Counted from the stretch's first letter, positions 1-50,869 are shown. The stretch is DNA of 50,869 nt from a virus (IMGVR_UViG_3300016484_001084:1-50869); one strand, 5' to 3'. A program made the numbers and translations. The notes: generated from the sequence alone by a model not told the origin.

Positions 1-22
1 CTGGCCACAGACTGGGAAGTGG
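1..22. repeat. 22-nt terminal overlap, identical to 50848-50869 (circular closure or terminal redundancy)
   Basis: Exact string ctggccacagactgggaagtgg at both ends of the window. Confidence 0.95.
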
Positions 23-3352: not shown

Positions 3353-4005
3353 AAACCTACCCCCTCCATCGTCTTCACCTCTACGCCTTTCTCGATCCTG
3401 CGGGCGGCAAGAAGATGGCGCTGAAAAAGGTCCGTGCGAACTCCGCCATCATCGTCATCGGCGTCGAACCGACCGCCCTCCAACGCATCTTTGTGCTTGA
3501 TGCTTGGCGTGGCCGTGACAGTGCCCCCCAGCTGATTCAGCGCGTCCTCGACACCAACGAACGGTGGCAACCCCGCCAGTTCGGCTGCGAAGCCAACGCG
3601 ATGCAGAGCCTCTTTACCGAGCTGGTGGAGCACGAAGCGATCAGACAAGAGAAGCACCTTCCGCTCGTCCCGGTCTACCAACCCACCAAAATCGACAAAG
3701 AATGGCGCGTGCGAGACGCGGTCCAGCCGGTCGTCGGCCACGGTCGACTCTTCATCCAGCAATCGCAGGTTGAGCTGATCAGCGAAATCACCAGTTTTCC
3801 GTTGGGCGAATATCGCGATATGATCGACGCGCTGGCGTCCGCGATCGCGATGGTGCCGCTACAAGCGCCGAGTGTACAACAGGACGCCGAACGCGAAGCC
3901 CTCGCCCGCTACTTGCGTCGGATTGGGTCAACCTCGACCGAGATTGAATCTCGCCTCGCCGCCTTCGATGCCGCTCGTGTAGAAACTGATTCGCTCCCCG
4001 CTTGA
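3349..4005 (+). CDS. terminase large subunit, RNase-H-fold nuclease part (separate ORF)
   Basis: LYAFLDPAGG...SAIIVIGVE...FVLDAW...FGCEANAMQ...FPLGEYRDMIDALASA are typical TerL C-terminal nuclease motifs. ATGA overlap with the previous ORF. Confidence 0.75.
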   Translation: MKTYPLHRLHLYAFLDPAGGKKMALKKVRANSAIIVIGVEPTALQRIFVLDAWRGRDSAPQLIQRVLDTNERWQPRQFGCEANAMQSLFTELVEHEAIRQEKHLPLVPVYQPTKIDKEWRVRDAVQPVVGHGRLFIQQSQVELISEITSFPLGEYRDMIDALASAIAMVPLQAPSVQQDAEREALARYLRRIGSTSTEIESRLAAFDAARVETDSLPA

Positions 4006-6501: not shown

Positions 6502-7791
6502 ATGCCGAAACTACTGATCGGAGCCGTCTTGAGTGCAGGCGTGATTATCGGGGCCGTGTGGTACAGCACGCACCCGGCCGAAGCCACCACCATTTTGGAG
6601 TCCACAGACAGTCTCGAAGTCGTGACCTCTGGTACCTCCGCCCTGGATTATACCGCGAGTTGGGCCGATCTGACATCCAGCGGGATCACACCTGGGAAAT
6701 CCAGCGGACAAATCACGACGGCTACCACGACGACGGTAGTGGCGGCTCCGTCGGCATCTACCTATCGCCAGATCAAAGAACTGACCATCCGCAACGTGGG
6801 CGGGTCGGCGAATTTCATCACGATACAGCGCGACGTGTCCGCGACGAATCGAACCATCTACGGGCGAGTCCTCCAGCCGCTAGAGTCCATCGACATGGAC
6901 GCGAATGGGACGATTACACCGTTTGACAGTACCGGCGTCGCCATCACTACGTCCAATGTCAACAACGGGATCACCGGGACACCTTACTCCGTGAGCAAAG
7001 TCGGCACCGCCAAAGACGGCGCTGGGTTTTGGATGGGCTTGCTGAAAGACGGTGGGGTGCCTGGCGCATACGTCCTACAAGCACCCGGCCTAAACGGGTT
7101 TGCCACGGATTGTTCGATCGCGTCACAAACCACGGACCCCAACGGGGCATCCCAAATGGGGTCGCATCCGTTACCAGACCCAACGACCGGCTCGCTGTAC
7201 CTCAAACAAGCCACGCTCTACAACAGCCAAGCGGAGTTGGTCCAGCTCATCGATGTGCTGTGGTACAACACCGGCATTGTCACCACGACAACGACCGCGC
7301 AAACAATCACGATGGGCACGCTGCCGAGTCGTGATAGAGACGGGACCGCGAACGGGGCTGGCTGGCAAGCAGCACTGTATGCCACAGCGGCATTAGGTAA
7401 CGCGGCGGCTGTCGCGAACACCACACTCAGCTACACCGACCAAGACGGGAATGCTGGGAACACCGCGACATTCCAGGCCATCACAGGCTACCAAGCACCG
7501 GCGACCCCAGTCATCGGTACATGGATGCCCTTTACATTGGCAGCAGGAGACAGCGGGATCCGGTCGATCCAATCGATCACACTGGGCACCTCCTATGTGA
7601 GTGGGAGCATGTCGTTGATCCTCTATCGCGTGCTCGGATCGATCCCTGTCAGCGTGGCGACGTTCCCGCAGGTCGTCGATTTCGGCAACCCTGGCGTCAA
7701 AATTTGGCCGAACACCTGTATCAATTTTTTGCAGGTGGGGAACGCCGGAGCAGCAAACCTCATCGGCAGCTATACCATCATCGAACGATAG
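6502..7791 (+). CDS. structural (fibre/receptor-binding-like) protein with N-terminal hydrophobic segment
   Basis: MPKLLIGAVLSAGVIIGAVWYSTHPAEA. 429 aa, AGGGAG RBS. Confidence 0.55.
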   Translation: MPKLLIGAVLSAGVIIGAVWYSTHPAEATTILESTDSLEVVTSGTSALDYTASWADLTSSGITPGKSSGQITTATTTTVVAAPSASTYRQIKELTIRNVGGSANFITIQRDVSATNRTIYGRVLQPLESIDMDANGTITPFDSTGVAITTSNVNNGITGTPYSVSKVGTAKDGAGFWMGLLKDGGVPGAYVLQAPGLNGFATDCSIASQTTDPNGASQMGSHPLPDPTTGSLYLKQATLYNSQAELVQLIDVLWYNTGIVTTTTTAQTITMGTLPSRDRDGTANGAGWQAALYATAALGNAAAVANTTLSYTDQDGNAGNTATFQAITGYQAPATPVIGTWMPFTLAAGDSGIRSIQSITLGTSYVSGSMSLILYRVLGSIPVSVATFPQVVDFGNPGVKIWPNTCINFLQVGNAGAANLIGSYTIIER

Positions 7792-37906: not shown

Positions 37907-38158
37907 CTAGAGTAATTCCGTTTCACGTAATCCATTCGGCTCGTCACGCACCACAAATGTACGTTTTTCATACTGCGCCCCTTCATTCACCAGCGGACAC
38001 AATGAGCCTTCCACCACGATTTCACACACACGAGCCCCAAACGTCAGAGGATGTTTCGGCAACACCTCGACAATCTTCAACTGCGCCGCATTCAGCGCCA
38101 AGACGTTTTCCAAGACATCAAATGACACGGTAATAACAGCTCGTCTGACTGGTTCCAT
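37907..38158 (-). CDS. hypothetical protein
   Basis: ATG 38158. 83 aa. Confidence 0.45.
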   Translation of the reverse strand: MEPVRRAVITVSFDVLENVLALNAAQLKIVEVLPKHPLTFGARVCEIVVEGSLCPLVNEGAQYEKRTFVVRDEPNGLRETELL

Positions 38159-38174
38159 GGTTAGGATTCCTTCC

Positions 38175-38363
38175 TTATCGCGAAAACGCGTTCGACCGCA
38201 TTTTGGCGGCTTTGATTTTTTGAGCAAACTGCGCTGCGTTAGCGAGTTTTCGTATACAGGCATTTCGAAGCGAAATCTCGATATTCCCCCACCAGCGCCG
38301 TTCACAGATCGGACACTGCCACCCGCTATGACTCGCTTCATGATATTTCTGACACGGCTGCAT
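38175..38363 (-). CDS. small Cys-containing zinc-binding-like protein
   Basis: MQPCQKYHEASHSGWQCPIC. Overlaps the polymerase 3' end. Confidence 0.4.
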   Translation of the reverse strand: MQPCQKYHEASHSGWQCPICERRWWGNIEISLRNACIRKLANAAQFAQKIKAAKMRSNAFSR

Positions 38364-41300
38364 CAAACACCTCCCGACTCGGCAACACCTTAAATTCCCG
38401 ATCCGCTTTCCATCGCTTGCCAATCGCGACTTCACAGGGAATGGTCAGCTCGGCCTTCCCATACAGCCTGGGCCGCTCCAGATGTTCCACGAGGAACTTG
38501 GCTACGTCATAGGCGCGTTCAGGGATCACCGAGATAAACACCCCATCGTGCACATGCACATTCAACCGTCCCCAGTCTGGGTGCTCCTCAAACAAGGCCA
38601 TGAGCGGTTTGAATCCCCACTGGTTCATCCAACGGGCCACCTCGGGTTGCATGCGGGTTGAGCAGGCTTCCCGAAAGGTGGCGTCATCCATCCGCTCGTG
38701 GCTGAAATCGTAGCGACCGCCCCAGGTGTCGTAGAGGACCTTGTTGCGTTGGACATCTCGCTTGACCCAGGCAAAGAACTCGTCGAGGGGCACCACGGAC
38801 CGATACGCGGCAATCGCCTTGTCACATTCAGCCGGGTCCAGCACAATGCCTCGTTTGGCAGCGTTGTCAGACATCGTTTGGCCTTGCATCATCCGTTGGG
38901 CACCGTGCACCACCGTTTTGGCAAAGTAGCGTTCGGCTTTGGTGATCTCCTGCTTCTTCAAGATCCGCCGCGCATTGTCGGTGTGCATGTCATAGACATC
39001 AGGCCGCGCGTTGGCTTCGACAATCAACTGTTCCTTCCCAGTCAAATGATACATCCACGCCAAGCACACCCGACCCTCGGCCTGACTGCCGTCCACCTGC
39101 AACCCGATACAGCCAGGATCGGCCATAAACATATCCCGGCTCTCGCGGTCCACGTTCTGGCCGTTGCTGCCGCTGCCGTCGTAGTAGGCCTTACTGTTCA
39201 ATCGGCCTTCCTTCGTGTTGAGGTTATAGCTGCTCCTGAACCGCCCATCCGCACTGATGCGCTTATCGTCATAGAACTCGCGCAACTTGGCCACCCGCTC
39301 TGACCGCAGTAGGAGCGGCGCGACAGCCTCAAAGTGCCGCCGTGCCGCCCGCACCTCGGGAGACACCAGCGGGGCCGCTTGATGATGCGACAGCAGCTTG
39401 CGAATCGCGAGGGCATCAGAACTGACTGTTTTCTCGTGAGTGCTCCGTTTTCGAAGTTGTTGGGGGAACTTCAGGGTGTCGTACAACCAGGCCTTAACCT
39501 TCTTGCCGCTCAGCTTCTTCTTGGCAAAGAGGTCTACCCCGTACGCTTGAATGTGTGCCTTGATCTGCTCCAACTCAGCTGCTAGCTCATGCTTCCGTCT
39601 GACCCGTTGGGCATCATCGATTGCGATCCCGGTGTGTGCCAACCGAAACAACGGCCCCAGCATCTCGGCGTACTGTTCCCAGTACCAGTCCAGGCCGTTG
39701 ATTTGCTGCCCGTCGCCGGTTTCGCGGGTCTGCGCCTCCAACCGGCTGTAGTACAGATCCAGCAACTCGCGCTGGACACAGCAATCCTTGCCGTTATAGG
39801 TCAAGAACGCCGCCATGTTGCTGGTGTACTTGCGCTGATCTTCGGGATCTTTGGCTTCATGCTTCCAAAACGGCTCGCGAGTATCCACCGACGCACAAAA
39901 GTCCAGCCGGTGCTCTGAGGTCGGATCCAGCGCGTGATGCATCAGCATGGTATCCCAGACCAGGTTGGGCAGGTCCAGCTTGCGTTCGACCTGAAACCAG
40001 TACCGTTCGTGAAAGACGTTGTGAGCTGAGCAGCACAACTTGGCCAGTTCGTCGACCAGCGACCAGACTATCCCCAGCTTGTCCTCATCCTTCCAGTAGC
40101 TCTTGGTCGTCGGGATGGTCAACGACACTGCGGGATCCTTACTAAACCCTACACAGACGATGGGTGCGACCAGCGGTGGGCCTTTTTTCTCAAGGGGGTT
40201 TTCGATATCCACCACCAGTCGCAGCTGCTCCCCTTCGCGTCGGCAGTCGGCCAGGTAGTCTTCAATATCGTGCACGGATGGGCTGATGTAGTGGGTCCGC
40301 ACCGGCAAATTCATCGCCTTGCTGTGCCGTTCCTCCGCAATGCGTGCCCAGTCGCGCCGACAAAGCGCCTCGTAGCTGGAGGTCCGGAAGGTGGCGGCTG
40401 GGTGAATGGTTGGAATCACCTTGATCAGCCGCCCGCGCCGATCTCGGTAGCTCAGAATGCTGCCTCGCCAATCGGTGATGCCCGGTCGTGAGGTTTTGCC
40501 GTCTGACTTGTGCCAGTGCACATTGCCCTTGCCGGTCAACGCATACAGGCTGTAGTTCCCCGTCGGTACAATCAGATAGGGATCCTCCAGATTGGCCAAC
40601 CGCTGGTGCAAATCCTCCATCCAGCTTTCCCAGGTTGGCTGATCCCAGGCGTCGGCCTTGTTGCCAGGCGGACGAAACTCGCAGTTGTGCACGGCAAAAC
40701 CTTCAACGATGTAGGTATGCGTATCCGTTTCGATGTCAACAACTTCGCGTTCGCCCAGCTCATTTTTTTCTTCTATCCGCACAGAAGGAAGACGTATCAC
40801 AGGCGGATCATTCAGCAGCGTTTCTAGTCTGTTCAAAAGCCGTTGCGGTCTGACTTCTCCTAAAAACCGTAGAGCTTGATTCACACCACCTTGCACACGT
40901 AGGCGCACAATGCGCTTTTTTTCGCTCTTTGTGACACCAACCGTATAACCCAGCTGTTCCATTGCTGCTTGCGTCTCGCGTAAAACCACTCCAGGATTCT
41001 GTGCCATCGCAACCATAAAATGTCGCTTCGCTCTGACCGCACTCTGAACAGAGATGAACCCCTCGCCATCAAAAATACCACGCAAATAGCCATGCTCTTC
41101 TCTTCTCTGTTCGTTCCACGGTTTCAGCGCCATGGTGAGATAGGAATGACCTGCTCTTGCTTGATCCGCTCGCATCCAATGTAGCGATGCGTTACGTCTT
41201 TGTGTTCCCGCTAAAAAACGGTGATCGCCCGTCATTGCAATGCTGCCTTCAATTGTCTGCAAGAGCAGGCACGGCTTTCGAGTTGTTTTTTTGTTTGTCA

Positions 41301-41631
41301 CTGTCGCTATTCGCCACTTTCTCAACGCCTGCCCTCGTGTTTTTCCGTACTCGTCGAAAGCCAGTACACGATCACCTATGTGTACATCGCAAATCGGACG
41401 CCATGTTAAATCAGCCATCAATACACGCTGCGATGCTTCAATGCACACATTCTCGATTCTGAAATCACGGCGGTTCAATCCCACCGCTTCCCACCATACC
41501 CGTAGCTTTTGGTGATAGCTCGGCCCGACAAACGGCTCGCCCACCGCTTCCTCGCGAGGGCCGGGAGCTTCCCCCACCAGGACCAGCTTGCTGTCAAGCC
41601 TCCCCCAACCTGGTACTCGTAGTTCGCTCAT
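38338..41631 (-). CDS. family-4 UDG-like domain fused to family A DNA polymerase, interrupted by an intein
   Basis: UDG motifs LVGEAPGPREEAVGEPFVG and PTIHPAATFR. Exo motif VVDIEN. Pol motifs VDGSQAEGR, RYFAKTVVHG, VHVHDG. ATG 41631 (TGATG overlap). Confidence 0.8.
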   Translation of the reverse strand: MSELRVPGWGRLDSKLVLVGEAPGPREEAVGEPFVGPSYHQKLRVWWEAVGLNRRDFRIENVCIEASQRVLMADLTWRPICDVHIGDRVLAFDEYGKTRGQALRKWRIATVTNKKTTRKPCLLLQTIEGSIAMTGDHRFLAGTQRRNASLHWMRADQARAGHSYLTMALKPWNEQRREEHGYLRGIFDGEGFISVQSAVRAKRHFMVAMAQNPGVVLRETQAAMEQLGYTVGVTKSEKKRIVRLRVQGGVNQALRFLGEVRPQRLLNRLETLLNDPPVIRLPSVRIEEKNELGEREVVDIETDTHTYIVEGFAVHNCEFRPPGNKADAWDQPTWESWMEDLHQRLANLEDPYLIVPTGNYSLYALTGKGNVHWHKSDGKTSRPGITDWRGSILSYRDRRGRLIKVIPTIHPAATFRTSSYEALCRRDWARIAEERHSKAMNLPVRTHYISPSVHDIEDYLADCRREGEQLRLVVDIENPLEKKGPPLVAPIVCVGFSKDPAVSLTIPTTKSYWKDEDKLGIVWSLVDELAKLCCSAHNVFHERYWFQVERKLDLPNLVWDTMLMHHALDPTSEHRLDFCASVDTREPFWKHEAKDPEDQRKYTSNMAAFLTYNGKDCCVQRELLDLYYSRLEAQTRETGDGQQINGLDWYWEQYAEMLGPLFRLAHTGIAIDDAQRVRRKHELAAELEQIKAHIQAYGVDLFAKKKLSGKKVKAWLYDTLKFPQQLRKRSTHEKTVSSDALAIRKLLSHHQAAPLVSPEVRAARRHFEAVAPLLLRSERVAKLREFYDDKRISADGRFRSSYNLNTKEGRLNSKAYYDGSGSNGQNVDRESRDMFMADPGCIGLQVDGSQAEGRVCLAWMYHLTGKEQLIVEANARPDVYDMHTDNARRILKKQEITKAERYFAKTVVHGAQRMMQGQTMSDNAAKRGIVLDPAECDKAIAAYRSVVPLDEFFAWVKRDVQRNKVLYDTWGGRYDFSHERMDDATFREACSTRMQPEVARWMNQWGFKPLMALFEEHPDWGRLNVHVHDGVFISVIPERAYDVAKFLVEHLERPRLYGKAELTIPCEVAIGKRWKADREFKVLPSREVFDAAVSEIS
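40684..41445 (-). mobile_element. intein (254 aa) within the UDG-like domain of the polymerase
   Basis: Starts CIEASQRVLMADL (block A), has TGDHRF (block B) and a LAGLIDADG-like YLRGIFDGEGF, ends IVEGFAVHN followed by +1 Cys. The flanks rejoin into the UDG motif ENV/CEFRPPGN. Confidence 0.8.
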
Positions 41632-41861
41632 CAGCTCAACACCTTCGTTCCGCGGTAGTGGTCCGGTCGTGCGTCCCACTTCGCTTCTTGATGATGGCGA
41701 CTCATATACTTCCGGCACTCCACACAGGTCTCGTGCGGCAATCGTCCGCACTCCATGCAGTGCTTTTGGGCACACCGCGCATGCATGGTTTCCGTCGAAA
41801 ACACACTCTCTGCTTGACACCATTCACAGTACAATCGGCTCTCTCGCTCGTTGAGTCGCAT
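41631..41861 (-). CDS. multi-CxxC zinc-finger protein
   Basis: CEWC...C....CMEC....CVEC. 76 aa, TGATG overlaps at both ends. Confidence 0.55.
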   Translation of the reverse strand: MRLNERESRLYCEWCQAESVFSTETMHARCAQKHCMECGRLPHETCVECRKYMSRHHQEAKWDARPDHYRGTKVLS

Positions 41862-42505
41862 CACCGCACCCCCAAGGTTTCGTCGTAGTAAAACTCAATT
41901 CCAGGAATCGGGCTGGGCTTGTCGCCGTAGCTTCGTCGGAGCTTGCCGATCGCCGCCTCGTTCAGCACCCAGCACTCGATAATTTCACCATCTACTTTGA
42001 TTTCGAGCGGGATCAGCTCTTCGTTCACCACCCGGTATTTTGGTACCTTGCGGACTGTACTCGTCCCACGATCGGTCGCCCATCCCTTCGCCTGTTCAAC
42101 CACAGGTTGAGGCGGCATGACCGGCATCGGCGGTGGCGGTGGTTGATTCGCTTTCCTTGCTGCCTCTTCCTTTGCGCGCTGCTGCCGCCTTAGTTCTTCT
42201 TGTGCTTGTTGTGCGGCTCGCTTTCCTTCTTCAAGCCGTTTTGCTTCGGCAGCTCGCCACGCCAAAATCGCGCTTTGTGTTTGTTGCTCGGCTTTTTTCA
42301 ACGGATCGATCACCAGCGCGAATTCGGCCTTCAATCGAGTCAGCCCCTCCTGAAACGGGCGCTTCATTTCATCAAACTTTTCCTCAGCAGCTTTACGAGC
42401 TTTGCGGAGGACAATCAGGTTGGCGGTTTCTTGGCCTTCGTCGTCCTCGGATTGCACGATCACCTGATTACGTGTGATCAATTGTGTCGTCGTCGGTTCT
42501 GTCAT
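41861..42505 (-). CDS. hypothetical protein with central charged coiled coil and poly-Pro linker
   Basis: 214 aa. Purine-rich RBS (GAAGGGGGGG). Confidence 0.55.
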   Translation of the reverse strand: MTEPTTTQLITRNQVIVQSEDDEGQETANLIVLRKARKAAEEKFDEMKRPFQEGLTRLKAEFALVIDPLKKAEQQTQSAILAWRAAEAKRLEEGKRAAQQAQEELRRQQRAKEEAARKANQPPPPPMPVMPPQPVVEQAKGWATDRGTSTVRKVPKYRVVNEELIPLEIKVDGEIIECWVLNEAAIGKLRRSYGDKPSPIPGIEFYYDETLGVR

Positions 42506-50604: not shown

Positions 50605-50869
50605 ATGGAACGGATGAGCATCGGTTGGGCGGTTGCGGCAATGCGAGAGGGCAATCGAGTGAGACGATCAGGCTGGAATGGCAAGGGCATGTTTATCTTC
50701 CTTGTACTTGGGAGTACATTTCAGGTGAACCGCGCACCACTCCTTGGGATGTATCCAGCAGGAACAACGATCAACTATCACGCGCACGTGGATATGAAAA
50801 CCGCAACCGGTGAGATTGTTCCGTGGGTGTGTAGTCAAAGTGATTTACTGGCCACAGACTGGGAAGTGG
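50605..50869 (+). CDS. DUF2829 family protein (Tad2-like anti-Thoeris sponge family), 5' part; continues at 23-60
   Basis: MERMSIGWAVAAMREGNRVRRSGWNGKGMFIFL...HVDMKTATGEIVPWVCSQSDLLATDWEVV matches the DUF2829 signature (a..a.k.GkkvrR.gWngkgm......mkta.g....pW..sq.DlLaeDWe.v). Confidence 0.7.
   Translation, partial: MERMSIGWAVAAMREGNRVRRSGWNGKGMFIFLVLGSTFQVNRAPLLGMYPAGTTINYHAHVDMKTATGEIVPWVCSQSDLLATDWEV
50848..50869. repeat. second copy of the 22-nt terminal overlap
   Basis: Identical to positions 1-22. Confidence 0.95.

Follow-up and report, generated by a model that had tools for sequence, protein, structure and literature searches.

The nearest experimentally studied relative of the element described here is the intein of ScottMcG gp245, a terminase-like protein of mycobacteriophage cluster C ("Pham3880-g"; Kelley et al. 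2016), which spliced in an MBP-intein-GFP reporter (PMC5050341). We analyzed a viral DNA of 50,869 nucleotides (nt), IMGVR_UViG_3300016484_001084 (the window, meaning the whole stretch), in which a polymerase gene on the minus strand contains a predicted intein of 254 amino acids (aa). The two inteins align end to end (gp245 residues 289 to 557; 31% identity; E value, 5e-36) and share a size of about 250 to 270 aa, the Cys1, TxxH, and HN blocks, and a single GYLAGxxDGEG motif. They differ in host and position: gp245 is a terminase-like ATPase of an actinobacteriophage and is interrupted at another insertion site.

Two other groups of described proteins resemble the window intein in part. The canonical LAGLIDADG homing endonuclease inteins of solved structure, PI-SceI, PI-PfuI, PI-TkoII, TliVMA, and PhoVMA, share with it the Hint splicing domain, an endonuclease at the same split point, and the class 1 splicing residues, whereas the window intein has one LAGLIDADG half-domain and a length of 254 aa. 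The homodimeric single-motif LAGLIDADG endonucleases I-CreI, I-MsoI, and I-CeuI share with the window half-domain one LAGLIDADG helix followed by beta-beta-alpha-beta-beta-alpha. These enzymes, however, are free-standing and intron encoded and have pseudopalindromic sites, whereas the window domain lies within an intein and its putative target shows no palindromic symmetry. To our knowledge, a half-domain endonuclease that dimerizes in trans is known for intron-encoded enzymes of the I-CreI type and is undescribed for inteins.

The host protein has the same architecture as the phage polymerases in which a uracil-DNA glycosylase (UDG)-like domain is fused to a family A polymerase (UDG-PolA), as known from N4-like cluster 17, SPO1-like, and SP15/YerA41-like phages (PMC10201439; 10.1101/2025.03.26.645540). 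It contains the defining N-terminal family 4 UDG-like domain, 3'-5' exonuclease, and family A polymerase. Inteins are not mentioned in either of these two papers. Intein surveys covering bacteria and archaea (PMC4760082), mycobacteriophages (PMC5050341), and actinobacteriophages (10.1101/2025.01.02.630785) list no UDG host, and a literature search, which did not cover InBase, found no report of inteins in UDG or UDG-PolA proteins or of this insertion site.

Boundaries of the insertion in the polymerase gene

The insertion occupies window positions 40684 to 41445 on the minus strand, within a polymerase open reading frame (ORF) that is mechanically listed as 38338..41823 (minus strand; 1161 aa). 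Translated in frame with the polymerase, it yields 254 aa that begin CIEASQRVLMADL, include TGDHRF and YLRGIFDGEGF, and end AVHN, with DFRIENV before the insert and CEFRPPGNK after it. When the plus strand is read in the insert's frame, the same interval contains many stops. A first-pass annotation, made from the sequence alone, had proposed a 254-aa insertion with intein hallmarks at these positions without stating the strand. The proposal is borne out on the minus strand, where the Cys start, both internal motifs, and the terminal VHN followed by a +1 Cys can all be read in translation. The gene is divided as follows.

40684..41445, minus strand: intein, 254 aa, precursor residues 63 to 316 (translation; absence from orthologs; family statistics; AlphaFold2 model; Foldseek)
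40681..40683, minus strand: codon of the predicted +1 nucleophile Cys, the first C-extein residue (translation)
41446..41631, minus strand: N-extein, 62 aa, the opening segment of the UDG-like domain, which includes GEAPG (motif A), PFVG, and the IENV Asn (Pfam UDG; alignment to 4zbx, 1ui0, and 1l9g)
40333..40683, minus strand: C-extein portion of the UDG-like domain, with CEFRPPGN and, as motif B, IHPAATFR (gap-free alignment of the spliced sequence; the 40333 boundary was computed from the last residue aligned to family 4 UDG structures)
38338..40332, minus strand: remaining C-extein, comprising the 3'-5' exonuclease region, the family A polymerase, and the stop codon (Pfam; NCBIfam)

The Cys1 codon lies at 41445 to 41443, and the Asn254 codon lies at 40686 to 40684. 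The Pfam UDG domain is split exactly at the insert, with profile positions 1 to 56 ending at residue 127 of the listed ORF. Pfam DNA_pol_A (E value, 1.5e-16) maps to about 38407 to 39594, and NCBIfam assigns both UDG_fam4 and DNA polymerase I, in agreement with the initial identification of the host as a UDG-PolA fusion polymerase.

A search with the spliced extein returned 192 homologs, and domains and inteins were counted in the best 120 of these, most of which have both the UDG and the PolA Pfam domains. The four closest relatives (P0001 to P0004; 97, 85, 81, and 78% identical; 843 to 847 aa) lack exactly the 254 aa, so a structural domain retained among homologous polymerases, the outcome that would have spoken against an intein, is not seen. 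These four proteins and loci L001 to L004 read FRIENV-CE[F/Y]RPP without a gap at both the protein and the DNA level. The element is an in-frame insertion with exact boundaries, it is missing from the orthologs, and its removal restores the host sequence.

Across the junction, the spliced UDG domain aligns gap-free to the family 4 UDG structures of S. tokodaii (4zbx), T. thermophilus (1ui0), and T. maritima (1l9g), and IENV-CEF-RPPGN sits on ITNV-VKC-RPPNN of the solved enzymes. The Asn two residues ahead of the intein belongs to the conserved TN(A/V)V segment, and its equivalent in UdgX, N91, hydrogen-bonds uracil (PMC10359453). The insertion is thus at a conserved functional site, as first suspected, two residues past the Asn aligned with the one that binds uracil in family 4 UDGs and UdgX. 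The accompanying claim that excision recreates the conserved family 4 segment held only in part: the exteins do rejoin without a gap (N-V-C-E-F-R-P-P-G-N), but the product is not N-x-x-x-C-R-P-P, and the position of the family 4 Fe-S Cys (NVVKCRPP) is a Phe in the window polymerase. The +1 Cys of the intein is not this Fe-S Cys; it lies two residues earlier and varies among homologs (C, V, or Y).

Family 4 motifs were defined according to PMC10359453 (motif A, GE(A/G)PG; the uracil-binding Asn; motif B, HPS(S/A)(L/V)(L/V)R; four Cys residues for a 4Fe-4S cluster). The window polymerase keeps motif A (GEAPG), the Asn in IENV, and motif B (HPAATFR), and the N-terminal CxxC is missing from the protein starting at 41631. 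The sequence suggests a UDG-like domain that lacks an Fe-S cluster. Because motifs A and B are retained, the domain looks like the potentially active UDG-PolA type (PMC10201439; 10.1101/2025.03.26.645540); motif A, the Asn of (T/E)NV, and motif B are likewise kept in the UDG-PolA subgroups with active UDG.

The intein family and its splicing residues

When 1.84 billion cluster representatives were searched by phmmer with the 254-aa query, 2,720 matched at an E value of <=1e-3 and 2,027 at <=1e-10, the best at 1e-61. Nearly all of the matches cover the full 254 residues, and they lie at many positions in host proteins of 332 to 2,494 aa. The family matches are far beyond chance. An exhaustive HMMER search was required, as a word-indexed protein search with the intein alone gave no match. 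Family statistics were taken from the 167 full-length matches among the retrieved proteins, and residue conservation was taken from 163 aligned members filtered for Cys1. The splicing regions of the window intein are as follows.

41116..41445, minus strand: Hint splicing domain, N-terminal portion (intein residues 1 to 110), with block A Cys1 and block B T72-G-D-H75 (Pfam; profile)
40684..40815, minus strand: blocks F and G, VVDIETDTHTYIVEGFAVHN, with the penultimate His253 and the terminal Asn254 (profile match; NCBIfam intein_Cterm)

The first residue is Cys in 162 of the 167 full-length matches (the remaining five are one-residue alignment offsets), His-Asn is terminal in every one, and the +1 residue is always Cys (74 members), Ser (73 members), or Thr (20 members). 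The conservation of Cys1, Asn, and the +1 residue, which the first-pass annotation had put forward as a check, is therefore found throughout the family. Family lengths range from 237 to 279 aa. Invariant in the 163 aligned members are C1, H75 (block B TxxH), W90, T244, G249, H253, and N254, all of which are present in the window intein, as is T240, which is invariant or nearly so.

Profile searches for Hint, intein, and LAGLIDADG domains, also proposed at the outset, point to the same assignment. Within the insert, Pfam gave sub-threshold matches to Hint, Hom_end_hint, Intein_splicing, and a single LAGLIDADG_3, and NCBIfam gave a full-length match (E value, 1.4e-13) to the intein part of the intein-containing Rv2578c-family radical SAM model. 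The family profile matches the Mxe GyrA, PI-SceI, DnaB, PRP8, and gp41-1 inteins in their N- and C-terminal splicing regions, with the C-terminus of the Mxe GyrA intein matched to the C-terminal block of the window intein. In the PDB, the single intein sequence gave no match by phmmer, whereas the family profile did give matches. Searched against the six-frame translation of the window, the profile has only one match, at the insert coordinates (E value, 1e-91), and no further inteins of the approximately 250-aa family were found in the window.

An AlphaFold2 (AF2) model built with 34 family sequences (predicted local distance difference test [pLDDT] score, 94; predicted template modeling [pTM] score, 0.90) has a Hint fold and one LAGLIDADG half-domain; modeling of the single sequence gave a pLDDT of 32 and an unusable model. 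In Foldseek comparisons with the PDB, homing endonuclease (HEN)-containing inteins rank first by E value (PhoVMA, TliVMA, PI-PfuI, and PI-SceI). The Ssp and Npu DnaB and Spl DnaX mini-inteins, a bacterial-intein-like (BIL) domain, and the Hedgehog Hog domain follow with target-normalized TM-scores of 0.70 to 0.82, and the probability of the mini-intein and Hog domain matches is 1.00. No solved structure spans more than about half of the model (query-normalized TM-score, <=0.49).

On this evidence, the insert is very probably a genuine splicing-competent class 1 intein. Splicing of the window intein itself is supported by homology, in that the related ScottMcG gp245 intein spliced in a reporter (PMC5050341). 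A permanent insertion domain or BIL domain, with the polymerase working with the 254 aa in place, seems highly improbable. The Foldseek matches to BIL and Hog domains reflect a shared Hint fold and are compatible with it, whereas the universal terminal His-Asn and the +1 Cys, Ser, or Thr are a hallmark of true inteins and not of BIL or Hog domains. The Pfam intein models do match only below their curated thresholds; nevertheless, the insert breaks the core of a UDG fold that is otherwise gap-free against solved structures, it is exactly missing from all four closest relatives, and one member of its family splices (PMC5050341).

We infer the splicing route from the residues that are present. 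A 1097-aa precursor of the replicative polymerase would be translated from ATG 41631 with its UDG-like domain broken between Val62 and Cys317. The element would fold as a Hint domain in which Cys1 performs an N-S acyl shift, and the +1 Cys would then take the N-extein by trans-thioesterification. Asn254, aided by His253, would cyclize and free the intein, after which an S-N shift would restore a normal peptide bond. The predicted products are an 843-aa UDG-exonuclease-PolA enzyme (...FRIENV-CEFRPPGN...) and the free intein. The polymerase should be annotated as this 843-aa spliced product, not as a protein of 1161 aa, with the gene start and the intein marked to match.

A conditional regulatory intein, the splicing of which would be gated, for example, by redox state, so that the polymerase or UDG would be active only under certain conditions, is improbable, if somewhat less so than a domain that is never excised. 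Cys1 and Cys+1 are both present, but Cys/Cys junctions are common in the family, in which 74 of 167 members have a +1 Cys. The insertion lies two residues past the Asn aligned with the uracil-contacting Asn of UDGs (PMC10359453), and target choice by a homing endonuclease explains insertion at a conserved site equally well. For some inteins, a regulatory role has been discussed (literature cited in 10.1101/2025.01.02.630785). In the present case, close relatives function in its absence, and no specific evidence of gating was found in this analysis.

As a genuine intein, the element is well supported but fairly ordinary; its family is large and already known, and only the half-sized homing endonuclease domain is unusual. 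The current understanding of inteins is unchanged by this finding. With it, the UDG domain joins the replication and repair active sites colonized by inteins, which fits their known bias toward replisome proteins.

The LAGLIDADG half-domain and signs of mobility

Approximately 95 residues separate the two Hint halves, and they contain the following feature.

40816..41100, minus strand: LAGLIDADG half-domain, intein residues 116 to 210 (Pfam LAGLIDADG_3; profile; AF2; Foldseek)

In the AF2 model, the half-domain has the topology alpha-beta-beta-alpha-beta-beta-alpha-alpha, with the LAGLIDADG helix at residues 116 to 127 and the end at residue 210. The motif is G119-YLRGIFDGEG-129, and its putative catalytic residue is Glu128. 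Pfam LAGLIDADG_3 matches intein residues 118 to 189, once only. The middle of the family profile (about 105 to 202) matches I-MsoI, I-HjeMI, I-AniI, and PI-PfuI, and in Foldseek some 100 residues align with a single half of I-DmoI or I-Tsp061I. The first impression that the endonuclease portion is too short for a two-motif LAGLIDADG enzyme is confirmed by all four methods, each of which finds one half-domain. The element is not a canonical LAGLIDADG homing endonuclease intein, as it has one helix and one alpha-beta-beta-alpha-beta-beta-alpha unit; nor is it a mini-intein, which would have no endonuclease domain and about 130 to 200 aa, as a folded half-domain of about 95 aa is present. The single half-domain state holds for the entire approximately 250-aa intein family. 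Some actinophage inteins have been reported with antisense or out-of-frame endonucleases; ORFs overlapping the intein DNA in the window gave no Pfam match to such an enzyme.

Among the 163 aligned members, D126, G127, E128, and G129 are 96 to 99% conserved and Q149 and R202 are each 99% conserved, on par with the splicing residues. When the family profile (YLAGLFDGEGS) is aligned with I-CreI (YLAGFVDGDGS), Glu128 falls on the catalytic D20. Residues 119, 123, and 127 of the LAGLIDADG helix are all Gly, and this spacing may suit tight helix-helix packing. The half-domain does not look decayed, because the putative active-site residues are 96 to 99% conserved and are present in the window intein. 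The initial description of a single-motif or decayed endonuclease is therefore upheld for the single motif and unsupported for the decay. The odds that this half-size domain is still an active homing endonuclease appear roughly even.

If it is active, two intein molecules would most likely pair through their Gly-rich LAGLIDADG helices to form the homing endonuclease, a homodimer like I-CreI being the simplest way for a half-domain to cut both strands. Such an enzyme would cut the intein-less polymerase alleles of coinfecting phages at the site coding for ENV/CEF, and the intein, along with part of its flanks, would be copied into them by recombinational repair. A half-domain active as a dimer would provide a small, possibly engineerable intein-nuclease module. 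More broadly, compact inteins with half the usual endonuclease appear to form a very large family. We regard it as possible, if doubtful, that the inteins of about 250 aa form a large unremarked class with a single LAGLIDADG half-domain dimerizing in trans, and that one lineage of them has specialized on the uracil-binding pocket of UDG (ENV|C and PF|CG) and moves between unrelated phage UDG-PolA replicases.

Base composition sets the insert apart from its host gene. The intein has a GC content of 49.1% and a GC content at third codon positions (GC3) of 44.9%, against 58.3% and 72.4%, respectively, for the extein, and it is the lowest-GC 762-nt stretch of the gene. An allelic intein in locus L005 shows the same contrast (GC3 of 30% versus 60% for its extein). 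The GC3 contrast suggests that the intein is of foreign origin.

Six metagenomic proteins (P0028, P0121, P0123, P0125, P0126, and P0145) contain inteins at the same site (xNV|C ... HN|Cxx[R/Q]P). Each of the six proteins includes a Pfam UDG domain, and at least three (P0028, P0123, and P0145) are UDG-PolA polymerases, of different subgroups. Five of these six inteins are the closest relatives of the window intein, with 44 to 46% identity. At the nucleotide level, the window gene is 89.3% identical to that of L001, its nearest intein-less relative, gene-wide and 75.6% identical within 45 nt on either side of the junction. This tract contains one amino acid difference (N/H) and falls in the lowest 1 to 2% of windows. 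A divergent flank fits co-conversion during homing but is suggestive only.

Several results weigh against an active, mobile half-domain enzyme. HEN-containing inteins with solved structures all have two LAGLIDADG helices (PMC8966425), so a version with a single domain may represent a remnant instead of an enzyme. At position 122, in the LAGLIDADG helix, the window intein has Arg where 77% of the family has Ala, and the conservation figures derive from the best matches to the window query and may overstate constraint. Across five alleles, the homing site shows no palindromic symmetry above background, which disfavors a simple homodimer. The junction tract is not enriched in substitutions private to the window (6 sites in 120 nt, a count matched by 24% of windows), and its divergence depends on a single close comparison, with L001. 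An intein at the window's site is present in only 1 of the best 120 of the 192 homologs. The intein family was never found in a UDG-PolA protein among 50,697 GenBank phage records, and close relatives of the intein are absent from the IMG/VR viral contigs that were scanned. The family as a whole is present in 171 of the GenBank records, in the terminases of cluster C mycobacteriophages, the portals of Gordonia phages, the terminases of Ralstonia phages, and a metallophosphoesterase of a Xanthomonas phage.

These points bear on a further explanation, in which the intein splices but its endonuclease is a nonfunctional remnant, kept for the folding or stability of the Hint domain, and the element is inherited vertically with occasional loss and no active homing. 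We consider this conceivable yet not probable. Having one LAGLIDADG half-domain where the known HEN-containing intein structures have two (PMC8966425) is in keeping with a remnant, whereas the 97 to 99% conservation of the putative catalytic Glu128 and of Q149 and R202, on the level of the splicing residues, across 163 members in unrelated hosts, is not. The lack of a palindrome in the homing site and the rarity of the allele also favor it, as does the same-site intein of P0028, in which intein identity (45%) is about equal to extein identity (44%), as under vertical descent. On the other hand, the family is found at dozens of sites in different proteins, for which an invasion mechanism is needed, the GC3 of the intein is 27 points off that of its host gene, a relative with 97% protein identity is intein-less, and the junction tract is locally divergent.

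The UDG-PolA polymerase group is a hot spot for inteins, which are present in ten of the best 120 of the 192 homologs (P0012, P0024, P0027, P0028, P0032, P0035, P0036, P0062, P0086, and P0109), at no fewer than eight insertion sites: after about residues 62, 285, 312, 336, 356, 359, and 656 in window mature numbering, plus one near the C-terminal polymerase motifs. The inteins in these homologs are of two types, one of about 250 aa ending in HN and the other of about 300 to 315 aa ending in TGN or ITGN, several of the latter with LKKPRKIERL.

A second insertion site in family 4 UDG domains (G-x-PF|C ... HN|CGxxGxxL) lies about 30 residues upstream of the site used in the window, at Pfam UDG profile position ~30. 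It is occupied in P0134, P0139, P0140, P0149, P0152, P0160, P0161, P0168, P0169, P0192, P0196, P0198, and P0202, some of which look like stand-alone UDGs (about 440 to 490 aa), whereas others are UDG-PolA fusions. The inteins at this site are among the next-closest relatives of the window intein, with 35 to 42% identity.

The polymerase start codon and the phage genome

The most likely start of the polymerase is ATG 41631 (residue 65 of the listed ORF) and not 41823. This assignment was made because the closest polymerase homologs begin at the equivalent Met, because the 64 codons upstream are unconserved in L001, where they contain in-frame stops, because a small ORF overlaps this region, and because an independent public assembly (contig L006) carries exactly the 1097-aa product, with an 80-aa gene ahead of the polymerase. 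This start gives a precursor of 1097 aa, with the intein at residues 63 to 316, and a mature protein of 843 aa. The 64-residue N-terminal extension, which has a CxxC, was considered as a UDG Fe-S arm and was rejected on the basis of the in-frame stops in L001, the small ORF in another frame, and the 1097-aa call in L006. The small ORF is as follows.

41631..41864, minus strand: small Cys-rich ORF, 77 aa, outside the intein; it fixes the polymerase start (sequence reading)

This ORF shares bases with both neighboring genes, as its stop codon overlaps the polymerase start in TGATG and its ATG at 41861 overlaps the stop codon of the preceding gene. The 80-aa gene of L006 occupies the equivalent position. 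The Cys pattern is CEWC ... CMEC ... CVEC, with a weak match to DZR (double-zinc-ribbon; E value, 0.025). In L001, an unrelated 131-nt spacer takes the place of the 77-aa ORF.

The window is a phage genome, with PHROGs matches to terminase, portal, primase, helicase, Sak4-like annealase, and Cas4-like exonuclease. Among the 50,697 deposited GenBank phage genomes, tblastn found no close relative of the polymerase (38338 to 41631); the best matches, to Desulfofustis phage LS06-2018-MD01 and Gordonia phages, are about 24% identical and cover the polymerase half only. Metagenomes contain nearly 200 homologs of the polymerase, and the phage lineage seems to be uncultured. The first 22 nt of the window (1 to 22) recur at its end (50848 to 50869), a repeat that points to a complete phage genome, about 50,847 bp (~50.85 kb) long, that was assembled as a circle or is terminally redundant.

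The stretch between the polymerase and a UvrD-like helicase looks like a variable slot, as it differs among close relatives. In the window, it is occupied by a 144-aa ORF without a family match (37907 to 38341, minus strand), L006 has an 83-aa gene (3718 to 3969) beside an otherwise identical polymerase, and L001 has hardly any spacer (6773 to 6860).

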